Assembly: GCA_014323965.1 (NCBI GenBank)
Contig: JACONB010000017.1
Span: 1 to 32,928, forward strand
DNA: 32,928 nt
DNA from: Prochloron sp. SP5CPC1
GTDB taxonomy: Bacteria; Cyanobacteriota; Cyanobacteriia; Cyanobacteriales; Prochloraceae
Direction: 5' to 3'
The notes under the pieces were generated by a model that did no database searches, had not been told where the DNA came from, and saw only the letters and a list, made by a program, of their open reading frames with translations. Shown piece by piece: positions 5,168-32,928 of this stretch (positions are counted from its first letter, which is position 1; each line of letters begins with the position of its first letter). A program made the translations under genes and the position numbers.

Positions 5168-5929
5168 ATGGCTACTTTAACAGCAAAACACGAGATTACT
5201 TGGGAAAAGCTACCAAAAGACTTTATTTTACCAGACGATCCAGTGGACAATATTAATCAGCCTGCCCTAGCAGCAGCTCTCACCGACAGCTTGGAAGCAG
5301 GAGGTATAGTAACCCCTAAAACCCTCACAATAACCAATTACGGCATTTGTGCCACCCTCAATGGGAAAACGGTGGTGAAAGCACCAGACTGGGGGTACAT
5401 AGCCAATATTAGCACCACTCGTGAAGAAGTCATTCGCAGTTATACCCCCCATTTGCAAGGAGAAATACCCACTATTGTCATGGAGTTTCTCTCAGATAGT
5501 GAGGGAGGGGAATACTCCACCAAACCAACTTATCCTCCCGGGAAGTGGTTCTTCTACGAACAAGTGTTGCAAGTGCCCTGCTATGCTATTTTTGATTGCG
5601 AAGCAACCGCCCTTGGCGTCCCCAGAGAAGGTGCTCTAGAAGTTTATCGTTTAGATAAATCGAAACAATATCAGTTGCAAAAGCCAGATAACAACGGACG
5701 TTATTGGATCGAAGGGATGAACTTATACCTGGGAGTCTGGGAAGGAACCAGAGAACGTCGCAGGGGTTACTGGTTACGGTGGTGGAACGAAGACGGGGAG
5801 TTGTTATTGTGGAGTTTGGAGTTAGCCCAACGAGAAAAGCAACGAGCAGATCTGGAACGACAACTAGCCTCCGAAGAAGATCGCTTATTGCAACAACTTC
5901 GAGCTGCTGGACTGGAACCGGAAGAATAA
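5168..5929 (+). CDS. Uma2 (DUF820) family endonuclease, cyanobacterial long form with C-terminal coiled coil
   Basis: ITWEKLPKDFILPDDPVDNINQPALAAAL...KAPDWGYI...VMEFLSD...GKWFFYE...GYWLRWWNEDGELL is the pattern of this cyanobacterial Uma2 subgroup. The ATG at 5168 is preceded by AAGGAGAAAAAG; the TTG at 5114 in the ORF track is less likely. Confidence 0.7.
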   Translation: MATLTAKHEITWEKLPKDFILPDDPVDNINQPALAAALTDSLEAGGIVTPKTLTITNYGICATLNGKTVVKAPDWGYIANISTTREEVIRSYTPHLQGEIPTIVMEFLSDSEGGEYSTKPTYPPGKWFFYEQVLQVPCYAIFDCEATALGVPREGALEVYRLDKSKQYQLQKPDNNGRYWIEGMNLYLGVWEGTRERRRGYWLRWWNEDGELLLWSLELAQREKQRADLERQLASEEDRLLQQLRAAGLEPEE

Positions 5930-11347: not shown

Positions 11348-11377
11348 CTCCGCGCCTCTGTGCCTCTGCGTGAAACA
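11348..11377 (-). repeat. orphan copy of the (CAGAGGCR)n / GTTTCAC leader repeat
   Basis: ctccgcgcctctgtgcctctgcgtgaaaca is the reverse complement of the TGTTTCACGCAGAGGCACAGAGGCGCGGAG pattern seen upstream of other genes. Confidence 0.7.
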
Positions 11378-14235: not shown

Positions 14236-15618
14236 TTACCGATAATCATAATAGTCTGTGCACTCGTTTTCATCTAATCTATGTACATATTCATATGCGT
14301 CAAATAGTAATTCAAAATGTTGGATAAAGCTATTTGGGCAGGGTAGGTGTCCTTGTGATGCATTAATGTCGAACACGAGGTCTTTGTAGTCTATCCACCC
14401 CCACCACCGCCTCCATCCAACAGCTACGCCCAACTTTATCGCTATTTCATAATCCCACTCCCAGATTTCACCCAAACTTTCCCAGGTTCCACCCAAACTT
14501 TCCCAGATACGCCTCTGAACACTAAAACCGAAGCGCCCAGAGGAATATTTCACCCACAACTGGTCTATAGTGCTCAAGTCGGTTGTAAAGTCGGTTAGAA
14601 GCACGTATTCAATCAACGAATCATATTCCTCTGGGTCAGCAGCACGTAACATGACTAGGACCAGATCTGTTTCCTCGTTCGCCTCCTTCCACTTCCCCGC
14701 TGCTAATAAATCCCTCAACTTAGTATAATCCACCCCCACTTCTGTCAGAAGAGGAACATCTTTAGGAAACAAATCCAACCACGCTTTCACAGAAGATGGA
14801 CGTTTTTGAGGTGACAAAGTCATCCCTTGAATAATAGCTTCCTCCAACTGGCTACTTATTTCGGGATTATATTTAGTAGGAAGTTTGAGTTTACGCCCAG
14901 AATACTTACGCGCTAAGGAAGGAGTAGGAGTTTTAGCTGTCACCAAATAATACAAAGACGCTGCGAGAGTATAAACGTCAATAGTAGGAGCGAGGAGCAA
15001 CTCCCTCAAATTTACCTCATCCTCATCCTCATCCTCCTCATCTTGTTCCCCTAAAATCTGTTCCCAGGAAGCAAAAGCAATGTTTGCTGCGTGACTCATA
15101 CTTTGGGTTCCCACATTTTTAGCAATACCAAAATCAATCAAAACAACGTTCCCATTATCTTCCCGGAGCATCATATTCCCTGGATGAGCATCCCGATGAA
15201 TAATCCCTGCTTCATGACAAACAGTTAAAGCGGAACAAATTTGCTTAATATACTCCACCGCCTTCTCTTCAGACAACTTCCCCTTTTCCTGCACCAGATT
15301 ATATAAACTATCCCCCGGAATATAATCCATGACGAGACAAGGTAAATCCCCTTCCGTGAAAAAGTCCGTTATCCTCACGATATGACTATGAGGTACTTGA
15401 CTTAATTGAGCCAGACGTCGCCCTTCCTTCTTAAACCGCTCCAAATACTTCTGATAATTCCCATCATGTTGAAGCTTTGCATTAGGAGTTTTCAAAACAA
15501 CATAGTACTCCAATTCCAAGTGCCATGCTTTATAGGTAGAGCCGAAACCCCCAGTACCCAACTCCTTTTTAATTTCATAGGGACGATTTTTCAACCTATC
15601 CCCTGCTCTAAACACCAT
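14236..15618 (-). CDS. Ser/Thr protein kinase with C-terminal GUN4-like domain
   Basis: GTGGFGSTY glycine loop, VVLK, HRDAHPGN catalytic loop and DFGIAK. The C-terminus YTKLRDLLAAGKWKEAN...IDQLWVKYSSGRFGFSVQRRIW is GUN4-like. ATG at 15618 follows a GGAG-rich stretch. Confidence 0.85.
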   Translation of the reverse strand: MVFRAGDRLKNRPYEIKKELGTGGFGSTYKAWHLELEYYVVLKTPNAKLQHDGNYQKYLERFKKEGRRLAQLSQVPHSHIVRITDFFTEGDLPCLVMDYIPGDSLYNLVQEKGKLSEEKAVEYIKQICSALTVCHEAGIIHRDAHPGNMMLREDNGNVVLIDFGIAKNVGTQSMSHAANIAFASWEQILGEQDEEDEDEDEVNLRELLLAPTIDVYTLAASLYYLVTAKTPTPSLARKYSGRKLKLPTKYNPEISSQLEEAIIQGMTLSPQKRPSSVKAWLDLFPKDVPLLTEVGVDYTKLRDLLAAGKWKEANEETDLVLVMLRAADPEEYDSLIEYVLLTDFTTDLSTIDQLWVKYSSGRFGFSVQRRIWESLGGTWESLGEIWEWDYEIAIKLGVAVGWRRWWGWIDYKDLVFDINASQGHLPCPNSFIQHFELLFDAYEYVHRLDENECTDYYDYR

Positions 15619-15698
15619 TTTGTCTCCTTTTCTCCTCCCTCTGTGTCTCTGCGCCTCTGGGCGAAACACAATCAAAAAATTGCCACAAATCTAGTATA
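15619..15698 (-). promoter_or_regulatory. -10 box (TATACT) plus conserved leader with (CAGAGGCR)n octamers upstream of the kinase gene
   Basis: Minus-strand reading is TATACT-AGATTTGTGGCAATTTTTTGATTGTGTTTCGCC-CAGAGGCGCAGAGACACAGAGGGAGGAG...ATG. It is near-identical to 26234-26307. Confidence 0.55.
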
Positions 15699-15794
15699 CC
15701 ATGATAATAAAATAAAAACCCCGCCTTTGCGCTGGAGCGAGTCTTCGAGCGGCTACTTGGCGCGAAACAATACCCATGGTGGGCATCGCTCACT

Positions 15795-24692: not shown

Positions 24693-25781
24693 GTGGTTCT
24701 GAGTCTTTCTACCCCAAATTTAACCCATAACTGGCCTGGTTTAATCGAGGCTTATCGCTCTTTTCTCCCCGTGAGTAGTTCTACCCCAGTGGTGACTCTG
24801 CTGGAAGGGAATACTCCTCTCATACCTGTTCCGGTTATCGCCAGTAAGGTGGGTCGGGGGGTTAAGGTGTACGTTAAATTCGACGGGCTGAACCCCACCG
24901 GCAGTTTTAAGGACAGGGGTATGACTCTGGCGATTTCTAAGGCGAAGGAAGAGGGGGCTGAGGCGGTAATTTGTGCTAGTACGGGGAATACTTCAGCTTC
25001 GGCAGCAGCTTACGCCAGCCGTGCAGGAATGCAGGCTTTTGTTATTATTCCCAAAGGCTATGTAGCTCTAGGTAAATTAGCTCAGGCTTTGCTTTATGGA
25101 GCACAGGTGATTGCTATTCAGGGTAACTTTGACACTGCTTTACAAATTGTCCGGGATATATCTGCTAATTATCCAGTCACTTTGGTCAATTCCGTTAATC
25201 CCTATCGTTTAGAAGGGCAAAAAACTGGGGCTTTTGAGATTGTGGATAGTTTGGAGGATACACCGGATTGGTTGTGCATTCCTGTGGGCAATGCGGGGAA
25301 TATTTCTGCCTATTGGATGGGATTTTGTCAATACCGAGAGGCAGGGAAGTGCCGTCGCCTCCCCAAAATGATGGGTTTTCAAGCTGCTGGGGCGGCTCCT
25401 TTAGTACAGGGAAAACCTGTTGCTGCACCAGAAACTATTGCTACGGCAATCCGCATTGGGAACCCGGCGAGTTGGGATAAGGCGATCGCAGCAGCTAATG
25501 CTAGTAAAGGGGAATTTAATTCGGTTACGGACGAAGATATTTTAGCAGCTTATCGCTTATTGGCCTCCCAAGAAGGGATTTTCTGCGAACCTGCTAGTGC
25601 TATTTCTGTTGCAGGTTTGTTACAGCTGAAGGAGAGGGTTCCCTCTGGTGCTACGGTGGTGTGTGTGGTTACTGGGAATGGACTGAAAGACCCTGATTGT
25701 GCTATTAAACATAGTAATAATGGGGTGACCTCCTCTGTTGCGCCTGATTTGGATGCTGTGGCTAAGGTTATGGGATTTTGA
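24693..25781 (+). CDS. thrC: threonine synthase
   Basis: [14 protein letters not shown]...[23 protein letters not shown] (PLP lysine) and [17 protein letters not shown] start. Confidence 0.9.
25482..25489. repeat. HIP1 octamer GCGATCGC
   Basis: Exact match. Confidence 0.95.
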
Positions 25782-25808
25782 TTGTGTTTCACGCAGAGGC
25801 GCTCGAAC
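25775..25808 (+). repeat. leader-type repeat fragment (TTTTGATTGTGTTTCACGCAGAGGCG) overlapping the thrC stop
   Basis: Matches the TTTTGATTGTGTTTCGCCCAGAGGCG core of the cassettes at 15619-15698 and 26234-26307. The thrC TGA lies inside the TTTTGATTG part. Confidence 0.6.
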
Positions 25809-25834
25809 GCCGGGGAGGTTTTCATCAAAGATCT

Positions 25835-25857
25835 GGGGTTTGAAACCCCGTTCTTTA
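25835..25857 (+). terminator. candidate thrC terminator (GGGGTTTGAAACCCC then GTTCTTT)
   Basis: Palindrome read directly, followed by a T-rich tail. Confidence 0.4.
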
Positions 25858-25919
25858 GGACGATTTTTGCGGTATAGCGACTCTTTTAAAAGATGAGCAG
25901 AAATACCTACTGAGAAGGA

Positions 25920-25948
25920 TTTACGATTTAAGTCTTCTTTGCTACAAT
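25920..25948 (+). promoter_or_regulatory. candidate promoter TTTACG-17-TACAAT in the ORF-free region
   Basis: Hexamers at 25920-25925 and 25943-25948 with a 17-nt spacer. Confidence 0.3.
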
Positions 25949-26074
25949 AGAAGTGTGGTAAAAACCAAACCACATCTTTTACAAATTCAATTAAGGCGGC
26001 AGGGCTTGCCGTGTCAGTCTGTGGAGCGAGCGTCAGACCCGATAGACTTTGCTCTAAAGGGCAGTTGCGAAATA

Positions 26075-26107
26075 CCCCCGCCCGCCATCGATGATGCCGG
26101 GCGGGGG
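26075..26107. repeat. GC hairpin CCCCCGCCCG-N13-CGGGCGGGGG
   Basis: 10-bp perfect stem, read directly. Its arm composition resembles the CCCCCGCC...CCGGGGG hairpins inside the intron. Confidence 0.7.
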
Positions 26108-26120
26108 ACAGAAGCAGAAA

Positions 26121-26170
26121 CCCACCCACCCCTACCCCCTCCCAGGAGGGGGACCAAGGGGGTGGGTTGG
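26121..26170. repeat. long imperfect palindrome CCCACCCACCCCTACCCCCTCC-CA-GGAGGGGGACCAAGGGGGTGGGTTGGG
   Basis: Read directly. The central CCCCCTCC/GGAGGGGG is perfect and the outer arms carry bulges. Confidence 0.6.
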
Positions 26171-26233
26171 GAATCTCGCCCCTTTAGCGTAAGCGGAGGG
26201 GGGAGAGGATGTCAATTTATGATACTATTGTGG

Positions 26234-26307
26234 TAGACTAGATTTGTGGCAATTTTTTGATTGTGTTTCGCCCACACAAAGGCGCAAAGAGAAGAGGAGG
26301 AGAAAAA
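26234..26307 (+). promoter_or_regulatory. -10 box (TAGACT) plus conserved leader upstream of the GUN4-only paralogue
   Basis: TAGACT-AGATTTGTGGCAATTTTTTGATTGTGTTTCGCC-CACACAAAGGCGCAAAGAGAAGAGGAGGAG...ATG. The first 39 nt, up to GTTTCGCC, differ at only 1 position from the kinase upstream region. Confidence 0.55.
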
Positions 26308-26703
26308 ATGGTGTTTAGAGCAGGGGATAGGTTGACAAATCGTCCCTATGAAATTAAAAAGGAAGTAGGGATGGATTATACTAGCTTGCGGGATTTATTA
26401 GCAGCGGGGAAGTGGAAAAAGGCGAACTGGGAAACAGGTCAGGTCATATTACGTGCTGCTAACCGAGAGAAAGAAGGTTGGTTGAGATATGAAGACATAG
26501 AAAAGTTTCCCAAAACCGACTTTCGCACTATGGACGATTTGTGGGTGGAATATTCCTCTGGGTGCTTCGGTTTTAGCGTTCAGAAGCGTATCTGGGAAAA
26601 ATTGGGTGGAACCAAGGAGTGGGATGATGGAATAGCGAAAAATTGGGGTGTAGCTATTGGGTGGAGACGAGAAGAGTCATGGATAAACTACAAACGTATG
26701 TAG
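26308..26703 (+). CDS. stand-alone GUN4-like domain protein carrying the N-terminal 17 residues of a Ser/Thr kinase
   Basis: MVFRAGDRLTNRPYEIKKEVG (kinase N-terminus up to the glycine loop) joined directly to DYTSLRDLLAAGKWKKANWET...KEGWLRYEDIEKFPKTDFRTMDDLWVEYSSGCFGFSVQKRIW (GUN4-like). Confidence 0.8.
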   Translation: MVFRAGDRLTNRPYEIKKEVGMDYTSLRDLLAAGKWKKANWETGQVILRAANREKEGWLRYEDIEKFPKTDFRTMDDLWVEYSSGCFGFSVQKRIWEKLGGTKEWDDGIAKNWGVAIGWRREESWINYKRM

Positions 26704-28793: not shown

Positions 28794-29642
28794 TTAAAAA
28801 GAGTAAACTTTACCATCCATTAGCAGTCGTGTAATACCCTTACCTTGGAGATGAGAAGAAGTTTTCGCAAACATTTCCCCATCGGGAACTTTAATTACCC
28901 GTTGGGAACGATTGGAAAAACGTCGGGCTACCTTGTGGTTCTCAAAAATAGGCAGGGTTTTCTGCTGCACTTCTTTTGGAGGTATTCTTCCCAGATCACC
29001 AAATTCTTTTAGGGGTCGGACGATTAATTCTGCCCTGCGGTCAATAACCACATAGCAAATATTGGGAAAGGTTGCTTTCCCTAAGGGCAAAACTTGAAAA
29101 TCAGACTTACTAAGTTGGGGGAGGGGTTCTTCTTCCCAGTCGTCCTCGTCGCTATCTTCTAAATCCTCTTCATCTTCGTTCAAATCCCCCAAATCTTCCC
29201 CAAGTAGCTCCTGGAGTGCCGCCACATCTACCATAGGTCCATCCTCATCCTCTTTGGTATCTTCGTTCTTTCCAGAAAACAAATTGAGCTGCTTTGCCGC
29301 AGTAACTGTATTGACTGGTTGTGGTTTGGCCTTCTCTTGTAGGATTGGAGTTTCAGTTTTCTTTTTCTGGGAACGGGAGCGGCGCCGACGAGTGGCTGGT
29401 AACTCACTTTTCTCAGTTGAGGTATCTGATTCGTCTCCAGGAACGGGGGTAATACGGCGATTGTTCCGCTTTTGCTGAATTAATTCATCGTACTCCAAAT
29501 CAGACAAGTTAGTCTTGAGAAAACGGCTAATAGTGGAGCTACTGACCTGATACAGCTCTGCTAGAGTTGAGGTTGTTTCTCCTGAGGTGCGATAAAGCTG
29601 TATAATCCTTTCTTTGTCTTCATCAGATAATTTTCTTGGCAT
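28794..29642 (-). CDS. conserved hypothetical protein: N-terminal helix-turn-helix, basic then highly acidic linker, conserved C-terminal domain
   Basis: LSDEDKERIIQLYRTSGETTSTLAELYQVSSSTISRFLK (HTH), RRRRSRSQKKK, then EDLGDLNEDEEDLEDSDEDDWEEE. The C-terminal ~110 aa are of unknown fold. Confidence 0.7.
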   Translation of the reverse strand: MPRKLSDEDKERIIQLYRTSGETTSTLAELYQVSSSTISRFLKTNLSDLEYDELIQQKRNNRRITPVPGDESDTSTEKSELPATRRRRSRSQKKKTETPILQEKAKPQPVNTVTAAKQLNLFSGKNEDTKEDEDGPMVDVAALQELLGEDLGDLNEDEEDLEDSDEDDWEEEPLPQLSKSDFQVLPLGKATFPNICYVVIDRRAELIVRPLKEFGDLGRIPPKEVQQKTLPIFENHKVARRFSNRSQRVIKVPDGEMFAKTSSHLQGKGITRLLMDGKVYSF

Positions 29643-29889
29643 GGTTTAATCAATAACCCCCAACTCAGCCCAATCGTAGTTACAAGAACAGCTTCTTCTA
29701 TTAGATTGGATTTTTGTCATTTTGACGCAGGATAATTTTCCCAGAGCGCGCCTCTCAACTGCGAAATAACCTGGAATATTGGGTTTCATGGCTCATACTT
29801 GCTAATGCCAAGCCCCAACTGCAACATCGATTTGACCGCTCTAATGAGTCAAAAATGGTGTCCTGTGCTATTTTGATGGGAGTACTGTT

Positions 29890-29929
29890 GGATTAGAGGA
29901 ACTGGTGTTTAAGCCAGTTGCCCCCATCC
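29890..29929 (-). other. group II intron domain VI with bulged branch-point adenosine (29894)
   Basis: GGAU-GGGGG-C-AACUGG-loop-CCAGUU-CCUCU-A-AUCC. All helices pair, two of them by G-U. Confidence 0.7.
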
Positions 29930-29932
29930 TTA

Positions 29933-29963
29933 GAACCGTACCGTATCTACGCTCATATGGCTC
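29933..29963 (-). other. group II intron domain V-like element
   Basis: GAGCCAUAUGAGCGUAGAUACGGUACGGUUC: AGC triad and GAGCC/GGUUC basal helix. It is 31 nt against the canonical 34, and the upper helix and bulge are irregular. Confidence 0.6.
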
Positions 29964-29979
29964 CCCAGTTTCATCGCTG

Positions 29980-31771
29980 TTAAGCAGCTCTGCCTCGTTT
30001 GCCATCTTTAATCCGTTCCTTATGCACTTCTTGATGTTGATGACATTCTCGGTGTAAGGCAACACAATTCTTGGGTTTCCAGTTGTTATGGTCTCTATTG
30101 ATGTGGTGTAATTCCACTATGTCACCCGGCCAGAACAGTTTGTTACAATGCGTACATTTCATCTTTTGCCGTTTCATCGTATTTCCGGTATAGCTGCCTT
30201 CATATTTCTTTGACTCTCGGTTTACCCAATAAATCAAATTTCCGTCATATGGACTTGCAGCTCCTTTAACCATTACATGTGAATTCACTCTGTGAGGTAC
30301 CGAAGGGAAGGCTAAATGGATTTGGGAATCCGTCAGTATTCTTTTGGCAGCCCTTTTGACTTTACCTCCAGAACCTTTCAGTTGCGCTGCTTTGGCATTA
30401 GCTATTCGCCCAGACTTCTTGCGGGACAACAATTTAGTTATCTCTTTTTCTTTTGCTTTTACCTTATCCCGTCGCAGTTTCTTCCATAGCCAATGGTTTA
30501 AAAACCACAAGCTATGTTTCCCCATGTCACAGAACTTATGATAGTTCCGCCATCCTCGGACTTTTGACCCTATCATTTTTAGACGAGTCTCTGTGTCCTT
30601 TTTCCCGCCAGATTTATCTGGCGTCCCAGTATTTCTCCAGGTCTTCTTAACCTCTTCTTTAATTTCTTTGTATGAATTTGAATGTGGTGTAGATTTAAAT
30701 CTTCCTTTGGAATCTACTTTAAAGTGCCATCCCAGAAAATCAAATCCATCCATAGCTTTACTCATCTTAGTCTTAGCTTCATTAATTTGTAAGCCTCTTT
30801 GCGCTAATCATTCGTCTATGTTACGCCGTAGCTTCTGGATATCAGCTCCGGGTTTACAAATAAATATGGCGTCGTCAGCATACCTGATGCCCCTTACACC
30901 TTTTCCGTTTCTCCCATATTTCTTCTGGGAGTACTGGTCTGACCCTAGGTTCTCAAATCCATCTAGGGCAATGTTTGCTAGTAAAGGTGAAATGACACCT
31001 CCTTGTGGGGTGCCTTCTTCACTAGAGGGACATTCTCCCTTAACACCTGCTCTTATTGCTTTCTTCAATCCATTTATGCCTTCTTTGGGATAAGACTACT
31101 CCTTTCAGAATCGCCTTATGGTTTATCTTATCGAAGCACTTACTGATATCCGTTTCCAGAACCAATTTGTCCTTCCCGTTTACTTCGCTATTCAAGTTAT
31201 TGAATATTAACTTTTGAGCATCATGGGCAGAGCGTCCGGGCCTAAACCCATAGCTCCTTTCTCCCGCTGTGGCCTCATAGGCAGGCTCTGCCGCATATTT
31301 CAGCAAGCCTTGCCAAGCCCTATCGGCTATCGTTGGGATACCCAATCCTCTGGTTTTCCCATTGGATTTAGGAATATTAACCCTTCGGAGCTTCTGATGC
31401 TGCCATTTCTCCCATTTCTGGTGCAGTTTCTGACATAGAGCTAACCGCTCTTTGGTTGAGAGTGCAGTTTTCCCATCCACTCCGACAGTTTTCTTCCCAG
31501 TGTTAAGTTGGGTTACCTGACGTACGGCTAACGCTTTGGCTGCCCGGCTGCGTAATAACAACCTTTGCAAGCGTTTGACCTTGGCTTTATTACCGTTCTT
31601 TTGAGCTTTGAAGATAGCCCGCTGTAAACGAAATACTTGCCTATGGAATTTCTTCCATGGCAAATCTTTCCAGACATCGTCTGCTTTCTTCCTTACCTTC
31701 AGCTTGGATGTCCAAACCTTCAGTATGGCTTCTAACAGCGGTATTGAATTGATTTTCGTACTGATATTCAC
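29980..31771 (-). pseudogene. group II intron reverse transcriptase/maturase with HNH endonuclease domain, broken into three ORFs
   Basis: ORF 31040..31771 carries RT domains 0-4 (IPKSNGKTRGLGIPTIADR, YGFRPGRSAHDA). ORF 30808..31068 carries GTPQGGVISPLLANIAL and RYADDAIFI (YADD). ORF 29980..30765 carries GFDFLGWHF, the maturase X region and HNH (CTHCN...ELHHINRDHNN...LHRECH). There is one frameshift (31040-31096) and one in-frame TGA (30808-30810). Confidence 0.85.
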
Positions 31772-32143
31772 AACTGGTTACCTTTTCTAATGAAACCCGG
31801 CGGCAATTACGCCGCAACAACCCTCGCTTTGACCATAAGACTATTGTCATTTAGCCTCCACTATTTACAACAACATCGACCAGGGTTTATACCCATGTTG
31901 TTAGAAGTCCAGCGAGTTTCTACTCGTTCCGAATGAACTATTGATATGGACCCTTGGAACTCATCTATTGACCCATGACCATCTCAGGAGTGTAAGTGAT
32001 TAATTACTTCCTTACGAGCATCTTTTCGGTCTCTCTTCTGCTGTTGAAACGGTTATAGCAGTGTCCTCTTTCAGGTCTGGTCAGGTCGAAGGAGTATGTT
32101 ACCATACTCCAGCTCCTTTTCAAAACCGTGCTTGCAACTTTCA

Positions 32144-32170
32144 CCCCCGGCATTGATTAATGGCGGGGGC
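32144..32170 (-). repeat. 27-nt hairpin repeat, copy 1 (CCCCCGGCATTGATTAATGGCGGGGGC on the plus strand)
   Basis: Identical to 32653-32679. Lies inside the intron 5' arm. Confidence 0.9.
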
Positions 32171-32652
32171 TCCTGCAAACTGTGGATGACTAATCCTTTG
32201 ACAAATTCCTGCTATCATATTTGGTACTGCTTACACAGGTCAGATAGATTTTCTTGGCCTTTCCTTCCTTAGTTGTTGTTTCCCGGCAACCCCTTTATAA
32301 GGTTCTTTGCCATATCTGTATTCCGTCCTAAGTCTGGTCTCGTTTGCTGCGGGCAATTGTTTCCGCTGTTACCAGCTTTCGTTTCGTTCCCGCGTCCTAT
32401 CCGTCGTTCCCGATAGAGTTTGCTAGACTCCCTCCTGGTTACCAACCCAGGTGGTTACCGACGTTTTTCGTCGTTCTAAATCCAGAATTGTTTTGAGCAT
32501 TTAGGTCTCACCAGTTCGCCTGCGGGTCACACCCCAGGGAAGCCCGTATCGAAAAAATAACCGGGCGGGTATATCTTCTTGTTTGGCACTGTGTGCTGAC
32601 CATTTCTGGCCCACCTCCATGTTAGACGCTTTTAACGGTGATTCACTTACTG

Positions 32653-32679
32653 CCCCCGGCATTGATTAATGGCGGGGGC
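32653..32679 (-). repeat. 27-nt hairpin repeat, copy 2
   Basis: Identical to 32144-32170, 509 nt apart in the same orientation. Confidence 0.9.
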
Positions 32680-32848
32680 CGGGGGCGGCTTTAGCCTCTA
32701 ACGACTCGCCCGTTTTTCACATGGTTCACTTAAGTTATTCCGGTATTCTCCCCATTAGCGCCAGTGTGGTTATCCACCGCTTGTTTACCTCTGATTGCGC
32801 CCTGTTTCCAGCTTCACTCCGGGTGACAAACCCTCGGTGTGGAAAGAA

Positions 32849-32885
32849 GCTCACAGAGGCACAGAGGCGCAGAGGATAGCACGGT
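32849..32885 (+). repeat. (CAGAGGCR)n leader repeat upstream of the last, partial gene; abuts the intron 5' end
   Basis: gctCACAGAGGCACAGAGGCGCAGAGGAtagcacggt-ATG. Confidence 0.7.
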
Positions 32886-32928
32886 ATGGATGAGCGCTTC
32901 AAACGCCTGTTTATAAATCCTCCGTGCC
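32886..32928 (+). CDS. possible 5' end of a plus-strand gene running off the window (MDERFKRLFINPPC...)
   Basis: ATG is placed after a leader repeat exactly as in the kinase, GUN4 and tldD genes, and the frame is open to the window end. Only 14 codons are visible. Confidence 0.3.
   Translation, partial: MDERFKRLFINPPC

Follow-up and report, generated by a model that had tools for sequence, protein, structure and literature searches.

A decayed, twintron-like group II intron copy at the edge of a sequence window from the cyanobacterial symbiont Prochloron sp. SP5CPC1

Overview of the locus

The window analysed here is a stretch of 32,928 nucleotides (nt) from Prochloron sp. SP5CPC1 (contig JACONB010000017.1), and its host is a symbiotic cyanobacterium of the Prochloron/Paraprochloron clade, of sponge metagenome origin. 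On the minus strand, from position 32928 down to 29887, the window carries what we read, with a probability of roughly 85%, as a decayed copy of a mobile group II intron that encodes a TeI4h-like reverse transcriptase (RT)-maturase and that has been interrupted three times. Read in the direction of the intron, the locus consists of a partial hairpin repeat (32928-32846), a segment of domain I of the outer intron (32847-32713), a nested and degenerate intron without an open reading frame (ORF) of its own (32711-32080), and the remainder of the outer intron (32078-29887), which encompasses the end of domain I, domains II and III, domain IV with the ORF, and domains V and VI (D5 and D6). The locus is an ordinary decayed twintron-like remnant in a genome that is full of such elements.

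A preliminary description of the window had likewise placed a group II intron on the minus strand, and the protein domains and homologous copies described below agree with it on that point. Its intron was nevertheless a different one, namely an element running from 32854 to 29887 that starts with GUGAG and has homed into a (CAGAGGCR)n leader repeat. The strings on which this model was built do exist, i.e. GTGAG at 32854-32850, CAGAGG at 32793-32788, AGAGGC at 32699-32694, GGGAACGAAACGAAAGC at 32391 (463 nt from 32854), the D5-like hairpin and D6. What they belong to is treated in the sections that follow.

The gene for the intron-encoded protein

The gene for the intron-encoded protein (IEP; 31771-29980, minus strand), as delineated by its ORFs, by three-frame translation and by Pfam, is by its sequence a pseudogene. 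Its ORF lies in three pieces (31771-31040, 31068-30808 and 30765-29980). The reading frame shifts within 31099-31070 and meets an in-frame TGA in place of the expected Trp codon at 30810-30808, the codon at 30808 being TGG in other copies from related metagenomes. The read-through translation scores above all the respective Pfam cut-offs for RVT_N (103 bits), RVT_1 (115 bits) and GIIM (29 bits). The closest solved structure is that of the TeI4h RT of Thermosynechococcus (T.) elongatus (6ME0, E 1.8e-65), whereas LtrA, the protein of the group IIA intron Ll.LtrB, is matched weakly (E 9e-23). Dozens of relatives with 63-76% identity at the protein level are present in Prochloron sp. OZ240666.1 and in Ca. 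Paraprochloron terpiosi CP073341.1; they are annotated as group II intron RT/maturase, and the best of them, 76% identical, is found in Prochloron. For strain LD05, the Paraprochloron genome paper gives a count of 50 RT genes, which it does not analyse (PMC9298193).

The 3' end of the outer intron

The remainder of the outer intron (32078-29887, minus strand, delimited by homology) aligns with the loci L001, L002 and L029 at 74-75% identity across some 2.2 kb (L numbers denote the loci used for comparison). The alignment runs up to ...CCTCTAATCCAAC, that is to position 29887, and the sequences part immediately thereafter. This agrees with the fold of D6 (29929-29887), in which the single bulged base, A29894, lies 7 nt before the end and is followed by 4 bp and AAC, so that the 3' boundary, D6 and branch-point A of the preliminary description are confirmed by both fold and homology. 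The 3' exon begins at 29886 (AGTACTCCC...), in a flank of unique sequencing depth.

In front of D6 lies an aberrant D5, GAGCCAUAUGAGCGUAGAUACGGUACGGUUC (29963-29933, minus strand), as judged from its fold and from comparison with L001 and L002. It contains an A.C mismatch and lacks the GNRA-capped upper helix that is present in L002. The Rfam model of the canonical domain V (RF00029) does not match at 29963-29933, even at E<=10, while the relatives L002, L030 and L200 score 54-57 bits. The odd form, with its GAGCGUAGAUACGG centre and no GNRA loop, is common to the window and to L001 (~5843-5873).

A covariance-model check, which had been proposed as a way to place the intron, yielded no match to Rfam Intron_gpII at the gathering score anywhere in the window. 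At E<=10 the sole match in the window was found at 32155-32080, with 20.2 bits (gathering score 40), a position that precedes the ORF and does not coincide with the D5 of the preliminary description; it was this weak match at an unexpected position that led to the nested intron. Other assemblies of the same locus (L078 and L079, located via the neighbouring 282-aa gene) break off within the element, the breaks falling at 32147 and 32714 of the window; the locus itself is present in sponge metagenomes.

A nested ORF-less intron in domain I

The nested intron occupies 32711-32080 on the minus strand, to within +/-1 nt, C32712 and C32079 being ambiguous. Where the window has an interruption of 634 nt, all other copies of the outer intron continue straight from ...GTGAAnCATCTGAnAAAA to AGACCTAA, and the homology with them breaks at 32713 and 32078. 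Copies without the insert are found in the same metagenome, with 32055 joined directly to 32730 (runs X1 and X2). The inserted piece starts with (C)GGGCGAGTCGTTAGAGGCTAAAGCCGCC and ends with ...CTCCTTCGACCTGAC(C); the 5' end of the intron is GGGCGAGTCGTT at 32711-32700, a start that is not GUGYG, and its D6 ends in ...CGACCTGAC. Homologous ORF-less elements are present at L030:1187-2176, L029:6497-7117 and L001:8771-8216. Relative to the copy in L030, the nested intron is without ~330-350 nt of its domain I, and whereas D5/D6 of L030 (2096-2174) reach 54.3 bits on RF00029, the window copy (32155-32080) has the above 20.2 bits, because a palindrome replaces half of its D5.

This palindrome, the GC-rich CCCCCGGCATTGATTAATGGCGGGGGC, occurs in the nested intron twice. 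Copy 1 (32653-32679) lies at the internal deletion junction and copy 2 (32144-32170) replaces the 5' strand of D5; the same position in D5 is occupied by the palindrome, in the opposite orientation, in L029(-):~2620-2680. In general the 26-27-nt palindrome (CCCCCGSCATTRATYAATGSCGGGGG) is dispersed in three genomes, often just after IEP ORFs, with further copies at L201:1713, L204:1603, L205:2251 and L209:2873 and a variant in the window at ~26075-26110. It resembles the very small mobile palindromes of other cyanobacteria.

The motif GGGAACGAAACGAAAGC (32391-32375, minus strand), which had served as an Ll.LtrB-like landmark for where domain I ends, is a feature of the nested intron and not of the outer one, and is conserved in the ORF-less elements of L030 and L029. 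The string like GGGAACGAAACGAAAGC that the nested ORF-less element carries may resemble Ll.LtrB. The putative EBS1 (exon-binding site 1) of the preliminary description, AGAGGC at 32699-32694, likewise has to be discarded, as it lies 13 nt into the nested intron.

The nested intron is a member of an ORF-less family that starts with GGGCGA(C/G)TCGTT instead of the near-universal GUGYG and of which seven copies with unrelated flanks were found (window 32711-32700, L030:1187, L029:6050, L027:4645, L011:164, L001(-):287 and L005(-):9129). A G at position 2 in an intron family that is apparently propagating is unusual. In L203, positions 670-1497 are taken up by a nested group II intron that is also ORF-less but of a different sequence (GTGCGACTCGAT..., Rfam D5/D6 44.8 bits) and that lies upstream of the RT ORF, a position that recalls the inner introns of the Thermosynechococcus twintrons. 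The nesting makes the window locus twintron-like as well, and its structure argues against splicing activity.

The hairpin repeat at the end of the window

At the other side of the domain I segment, the last 83 nt of the window (32928-32846, minus strand) are part of a repeat of ~105 nt that resembles miniature inverted-repeat transposable elements (MITEs) and REPINs, and that was recognised from its identity to L203, from sequencing depth and from its fold. The copy contains a (CCTCTGYG)3 array (32852-32875), GTGAGCTTC and the spurious ATG at 32886, and the window ends inside it. Window positions 32928-32847 are identical to L203:31-112 (82/82), and the repeat of an intron-free copy, L014:9511-9610, is 91% identical over 100 nt. 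Unitig depth jumps from ~100 to 400-590 at 32845 (32845-32874), with 3.6-6 in the unique flank, and the repeat is dispersed in ~100 copies; copies are present in three genomes, where the octamer arrays have differing continuations. The repeat folds into a long hairpin, the arms of which are formed by a (CRCAGAGG)n and a (CCTCTGYG)n array (minimum free energy -42 to -47 kcal/mol, z -3.2 to -4.2). Outer and inner stems are shared by the repeats of L203, L014 and L025, though the centre of the one in L025 differs. The only ORF within the repeat has 22 codons and then a stop in L203, and 19 codons in L014, so that the plus-strand gene that had been proposed to start at 32886 is, in the identical sequence of L203, this ORF of 22 codons.

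The relation between repeat and intron follows from L203, which derives from the same sponge metagenome and in which the repeat interrupts domain I of the intron: ATCCCTATCTG-CA-(TCGCGCAGAGGCGCTCC GGCACGGAGG...CTCTGTGAGCTTC)-TG-TCCACGATGAGG. When the flanks are joined, the uninterrupted sequence of L206 and L200 is obtained, GAATCC(C/T)TA(C/T)CTG|(G/C)CCAC..., and since the flanks thus rejoin to intron sequence, domain I is where the repeat was inserted, and it is within this repeat that the window ends. In the window, the segment that follows (32847-32713, minus strand) is collinear with L001:3550-3663 and with many other copies, and begins at about intron position 294 (in the numbering of L200) or 381 (in that of L001); the bases 32847-32846 (TC) are common to the end of the repeat and the intron segment.

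These observations bear directly on the earlier model of homing into the octamer repeat, which we consider highly improbable. Apart from the existence of the cited strings, the model has in its favour that the EBS2 of the intron, AAGAGG (see below), is complementary at 5/6 positions to CCTCTG of the array. However, GUGAG cannot be the 5' splice site, given that it lies in the hairpin repeat and that the relatives start with GTGCGG some 300-380 nt further upstream; GTGAGCTTC belongs to the repeat also at sites that have no intron, where GTGAGCTTC(C) directly follows the octamer array (L014:9511-9610 and L025:6400-6494). The order of insertion is thus reversed, with the repeat sitting in the intron, as in L203, and not one of 33 relatives is inserted in such a repeat. 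The joining of flanks by which the leader was supposedly recreated removes nine bases of the repeat, and the upstream 'flank' is not an exon. As for TTTTGAT, it was considered as a target motif and rejected, being absent from the flanks of the intron-borne copies of the repeat.

Full-length relatives and the missing 5' part

From the fetched relative loci we extracted 33 full-length introns, all of which begin with GTGCGGCTCGTT (also given as GUGCGGCUCGUU; GTGCGG), the conserved 5' end in the family being GTGCGGCTCGTTCC... They end in CTCTAAT, the GTGTAAC of L001 representing the sublineage of the window, and are mostly 2.5-2.7 kb long, with four copies of 2.9-3.6 kb. Tabulation of their flanks, which had been suggested as a check on homing into the repeat, shows that these are diverse and that an octamer repeat is the insertion site in 0/33. 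The equivalent of window position 32841 (CACACCGAGGG) is found at intron position ~300 (L005, L200) to 384 (L001). The first ~300-380 nt of the relatives have no BLAST match anywhere in the window, and an nhmmer profile of these 5' parts matches 32841-32713 as its only stretch in the window.

The 5' portion of the intron family does exist in the organism, according to a comparison of metagenome contigs with the 5' part of L001, although no junction of an L001-type 5' part to the other end of the repeat is listed in this same comparison. The contigs of runs X1, X2, X3 and X9 contain no joint that spans from 29886 to 32846 or beyond, and a scan of the metagenome for the exact 14-mer CCTCTGTGAGCTTC, a pattern that is too short, gave chance matches only.

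Two head-to-tail tandem arrangements of introns were observed among the relatives, L015:5818/5819 and L009:5767-5776, in which the next GTGCGG follows directly or 8 nt further on. In domain I, small GC-rich insertions (e.g. CCTGCTCCTGCGCAGCCGCGCCCTCCGGG) occur upstream of GAAGCTGG in the copies at L012:2579 and L028:3317, at most a few tens of nt from the site of the hairpin repeat. That region of domain I seems to be either permissive for insertions or attractive to them.

Recurrence of the repeat at one site in domain I

The junction between repeat and intron is not confined to the window and L203, as the same junction is present in four further diverged intron copies (L210, L207/L208 and L205). 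The repeat stretches of the intron copies are L203:12-115, L210:1-21, L207:1-42, L205:1-40 and window 32846-32928. The carriers differ in their EBS and are only 65-84% identical in the flanking intron sequence. The depth of the junction unitig (32822-32874) is ~34, which corresponds to roughly 6-9 copies, whereas none of 33+ copies in Prochloron/Paraprochloron loci has the repeat at that site in domain I. There may be a 4-bp duplication of TCTG in L203 and an 8-bp one, TCTTCGTT, near L025, of which the offsets are inconsistent.

One way to account for a window copy that is without its 5' part is truncation, either by abortive reverse transcription or by a later deletion, with the repeat merely abutting the break. 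That deletions beside the repeat do occur is indicated by another copy in the metagenome, to which a fragment of D5 from an ORF-less intron is directly joined (loose end at 32842). Yet the junction is exactly the same in five diverged copies, and in L203 intron sequence also lies beyond the repeat; because independent truncations would not coincide at one nucleotide, we regard truncation as unlikely. Its variant of abortive reverse transcription was dropped in view of the shared junction of L203, L205, L207 and L210 and of the intron beyond the repeat in L203.

Two explanations of the recurrence then have to be weighed. The repeat could be a site-specific element that hits the domain I site TATCT(G/T)^(T/C)CCAC again and again, a suggestion we put forward tentatively and on the basis that in at least 5 diverged copies of one genome the repeat is 100% identical while the intron is 65-84% identical. 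If true, the repeat could be a miniature mobile element that has specialised on introns, their DNA serving it as a safe haven, and would show a small repeat that uses retroelements as landing pads. Also of rather low probability in our view is that the repeat was acquired once by a sublineage of the intron and was then spread as a module by retromobility or gene conversion, which would make it a hairpin that is tolerated and carried along by the ribozyme. The carriers differ in EBS1/EBS2 and in location, as would be expected if they moved afterwards; the intron copies are mosaic, the window and L210 being identical for ~50 nt and then diverging; and a self-contained hairpin could protrude from domain I. 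This single acquisition is hard to reconcile with a repeat that is 100% identical between copies in which the flanking intron is 65-67% identical, with the ~10-fold greater abundance of the repeat as compared to the junction, and with the absence of the repeat from the site in all of the 33+ Prochloron/Paraprochloron copies.

The exon-binding sites

The loops that recognise the 5' exon were located by covariation in the relatives. EBS1 is contained in the stem-loop GTAAG-GAAGTAATTAATCA-CTTAC (32015-31992, minus strand) and reads approximately TAATTAA (32006-32000), with ~TTAATTA as the predicted intron-binding site (IBS) 1. Among the full-length copies, pairing between the loop that follows CUCGUAAG and the terminal 6-8 nt of each copy's own 5' exon extends over a mean run of 5.85 bp, versus 3.75 bp for mismatched combinations, and runs of >=6 bp are formed with 62% of the own exons versus 7% of the exons of other copies. 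EBS2 is AAGAGG in AGACCTGA[AAGAGG]ACACTG (32070-32065, minus strand), with CCTCTT as the predicted IBS2; the N6 in AGACCUAA[N6]ACACUG covaries with exon positions -12 to -7 in most full-length copies (EBS2/exon: L004 ACCAGT/ACTGGT, L012 AAGTTGG/CCAACTT, L050 ATCGTA/TACGAT, L206 TTTGTT/AACAAA). The cognate 5' exon of the window copy should therefore end near CCTCTT-TTAATTA, if these pairings hold for it.

Neither of the exon-binding sites of the preliminary description coincides with these positions. The loop that contains CAGAGG at 32793-32788 (GGGCGCAATCAGAGGTAAACAAGCG) is identical in L206, of which the 5' exon is unrelated, and can therefore not be EBS2; the candidate for EBS1 falls in the nested intron, as noted. 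The homing model is further weakened by EBS1 TAATTAA, which has no complement in the repeat or in the putative exon proposed earlier, and since EBS1 has no partner there, the 5/6 complementarity of EBS2 AAGAGG to the CCTCTG of the array is regarded as chance. CTTCTT at the junction was considered as a relic IBS2, as it pairs with EBS2 AAGAGG with one G.U, and was rejected for being a composite of repeat end and intron; uninterrupted copies have TCTTTCCACACC as native intron sequence. Six-mer matches between EBS and IBS are, it follows, unreliable when they are not compared with sister copies, and a window edge that lies inside a repeat can pass for an element boundary.

A proposed history of the locus

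The features described above can be arranged in the following scenario. The intron would have inserted ~245 nt upstream of, and in the same orientation as, the minus-strand gene for a 282-aa protein, presumably by retrohoming or retrotransposition. The protein gene would then have gained its frameshift and stop codon, and an ORF-less group II intron would have entered domain I just 5' of EBS2. This inner intron would later have lost ~330-350 nt of its own domain I, with the palindrome taking half of D5. The ~105-nt hairpin repeat with (CAGAGGCR)n would have landed in domain I at about position 300-380, in which case the real 5' part, the GUGCGG splice site and the true 5' exon are expected beyond position 32928, at a distance of ~25-30 nt plus 300-380 nt. 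The sequence past 32928 would comprise the remainder of the repeat (...GGAGCGCCTCTGCGCGATG), then ...AATCCCTATCT, domain I and GTGCGG.

Several considerations count against this scenario and the reading of the locus as a decayed and interrupted copy. The continuation of the window copy beyond 32928 is extrapolated from sister copies, of which L203 covers no more than 11 nt of the intron on the upstream side of the repeat before its contig ends. That the window copy no longer splices is likewise something that we infer from its sequence, and L001 has the same odd D5 and yet an open frame of 664 aa, so that this form of D5 may not be lethal on its own. The odd D5 may thus predate the inactivation.

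Relation to known systems

In T. elongatus, the TeI4/TeI3 introns have proliferated and formed twintrons, and identical inner elements in diverged outer introns point to recent independent insertions (PMC2882425), an argument that can be made for the present case as well. The family described here is similar in that it has ORF-containing and ORF-less members, nested introns and diversified EBS (PMC2882425). Within the TeI4 family, TeI4g::ISEL2f is a copy that is interrupted by an insertion sequence, whereas the guest in the window is instead a hairpin repeat of ~105 nt. Unlike in TeI4/TeI3, the inner intron of the window lies in domain I beside EBS2 and not at the start of the ORF, it is degenerate, and the outer intron is a pseudogene copy. 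The intron-within-intron architecture is shared with the group II twintron of Trichodesmium (PMC4649490), and the combination of nesting with decay of the inner and/or outer partner with the 'zombie' twintrons of plant mitochondria (PMC7049729). In contrast to both, the window locus is intergenic and both of its partners appear to be inactive. The locus adds to the examples of introns that have proliferated and become nested in cyanobacterial symbionts restricted to a host.

Hairpin-forming miniature repeats also include ERIC and the Correia-type MITEs. With REPINs, the repeat in the window has in common that it is ~100 nt long, has inverted arms that form a long hairpin, is present in ~100 copies per genome, is non-coding and is mostly intergenic (PMC3116915). 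It differs from them in that its arms consist of a tandem octamer and in that it recurs at one position in group II introns. No RAYT or transposase is linked to the repeat, a transposase search not having been made.

Other features of the window

The octamer leader was also said to lie upstream of three other genes of the window, a claim that holds up weakly, as the instances at 15638-15716 and 26216-26290 are one duplicated segment. No gene follows the instance at 11355, and that at 25776 lies at the 3' end of a gene. The duplicated segment is part of a larger relationship between a gene for a Ser/Thr kinase-GUN4 fusion (14236-15716, minus strand) and a GUN4-only paralogue (26216-26703, plus strand), which share inverted duplicated blocks. 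These are 86-93% identical and cover the 5' region, with the upstream 'leader', and much of the GUN4 domain. Two TTTTGATTGTGTTTC motifs bracket the stretch 25776-26255, which has the look of a repeat-rich insertion. Downstream of the intron, the product of the 282-aa gene (28794-29642, minus strand) gives only a weak N-terminal helix-turn-helix signal (HTH_23) that narrowly misses the Pfam cut-off, and its long middle part is acidic and of low complexity.

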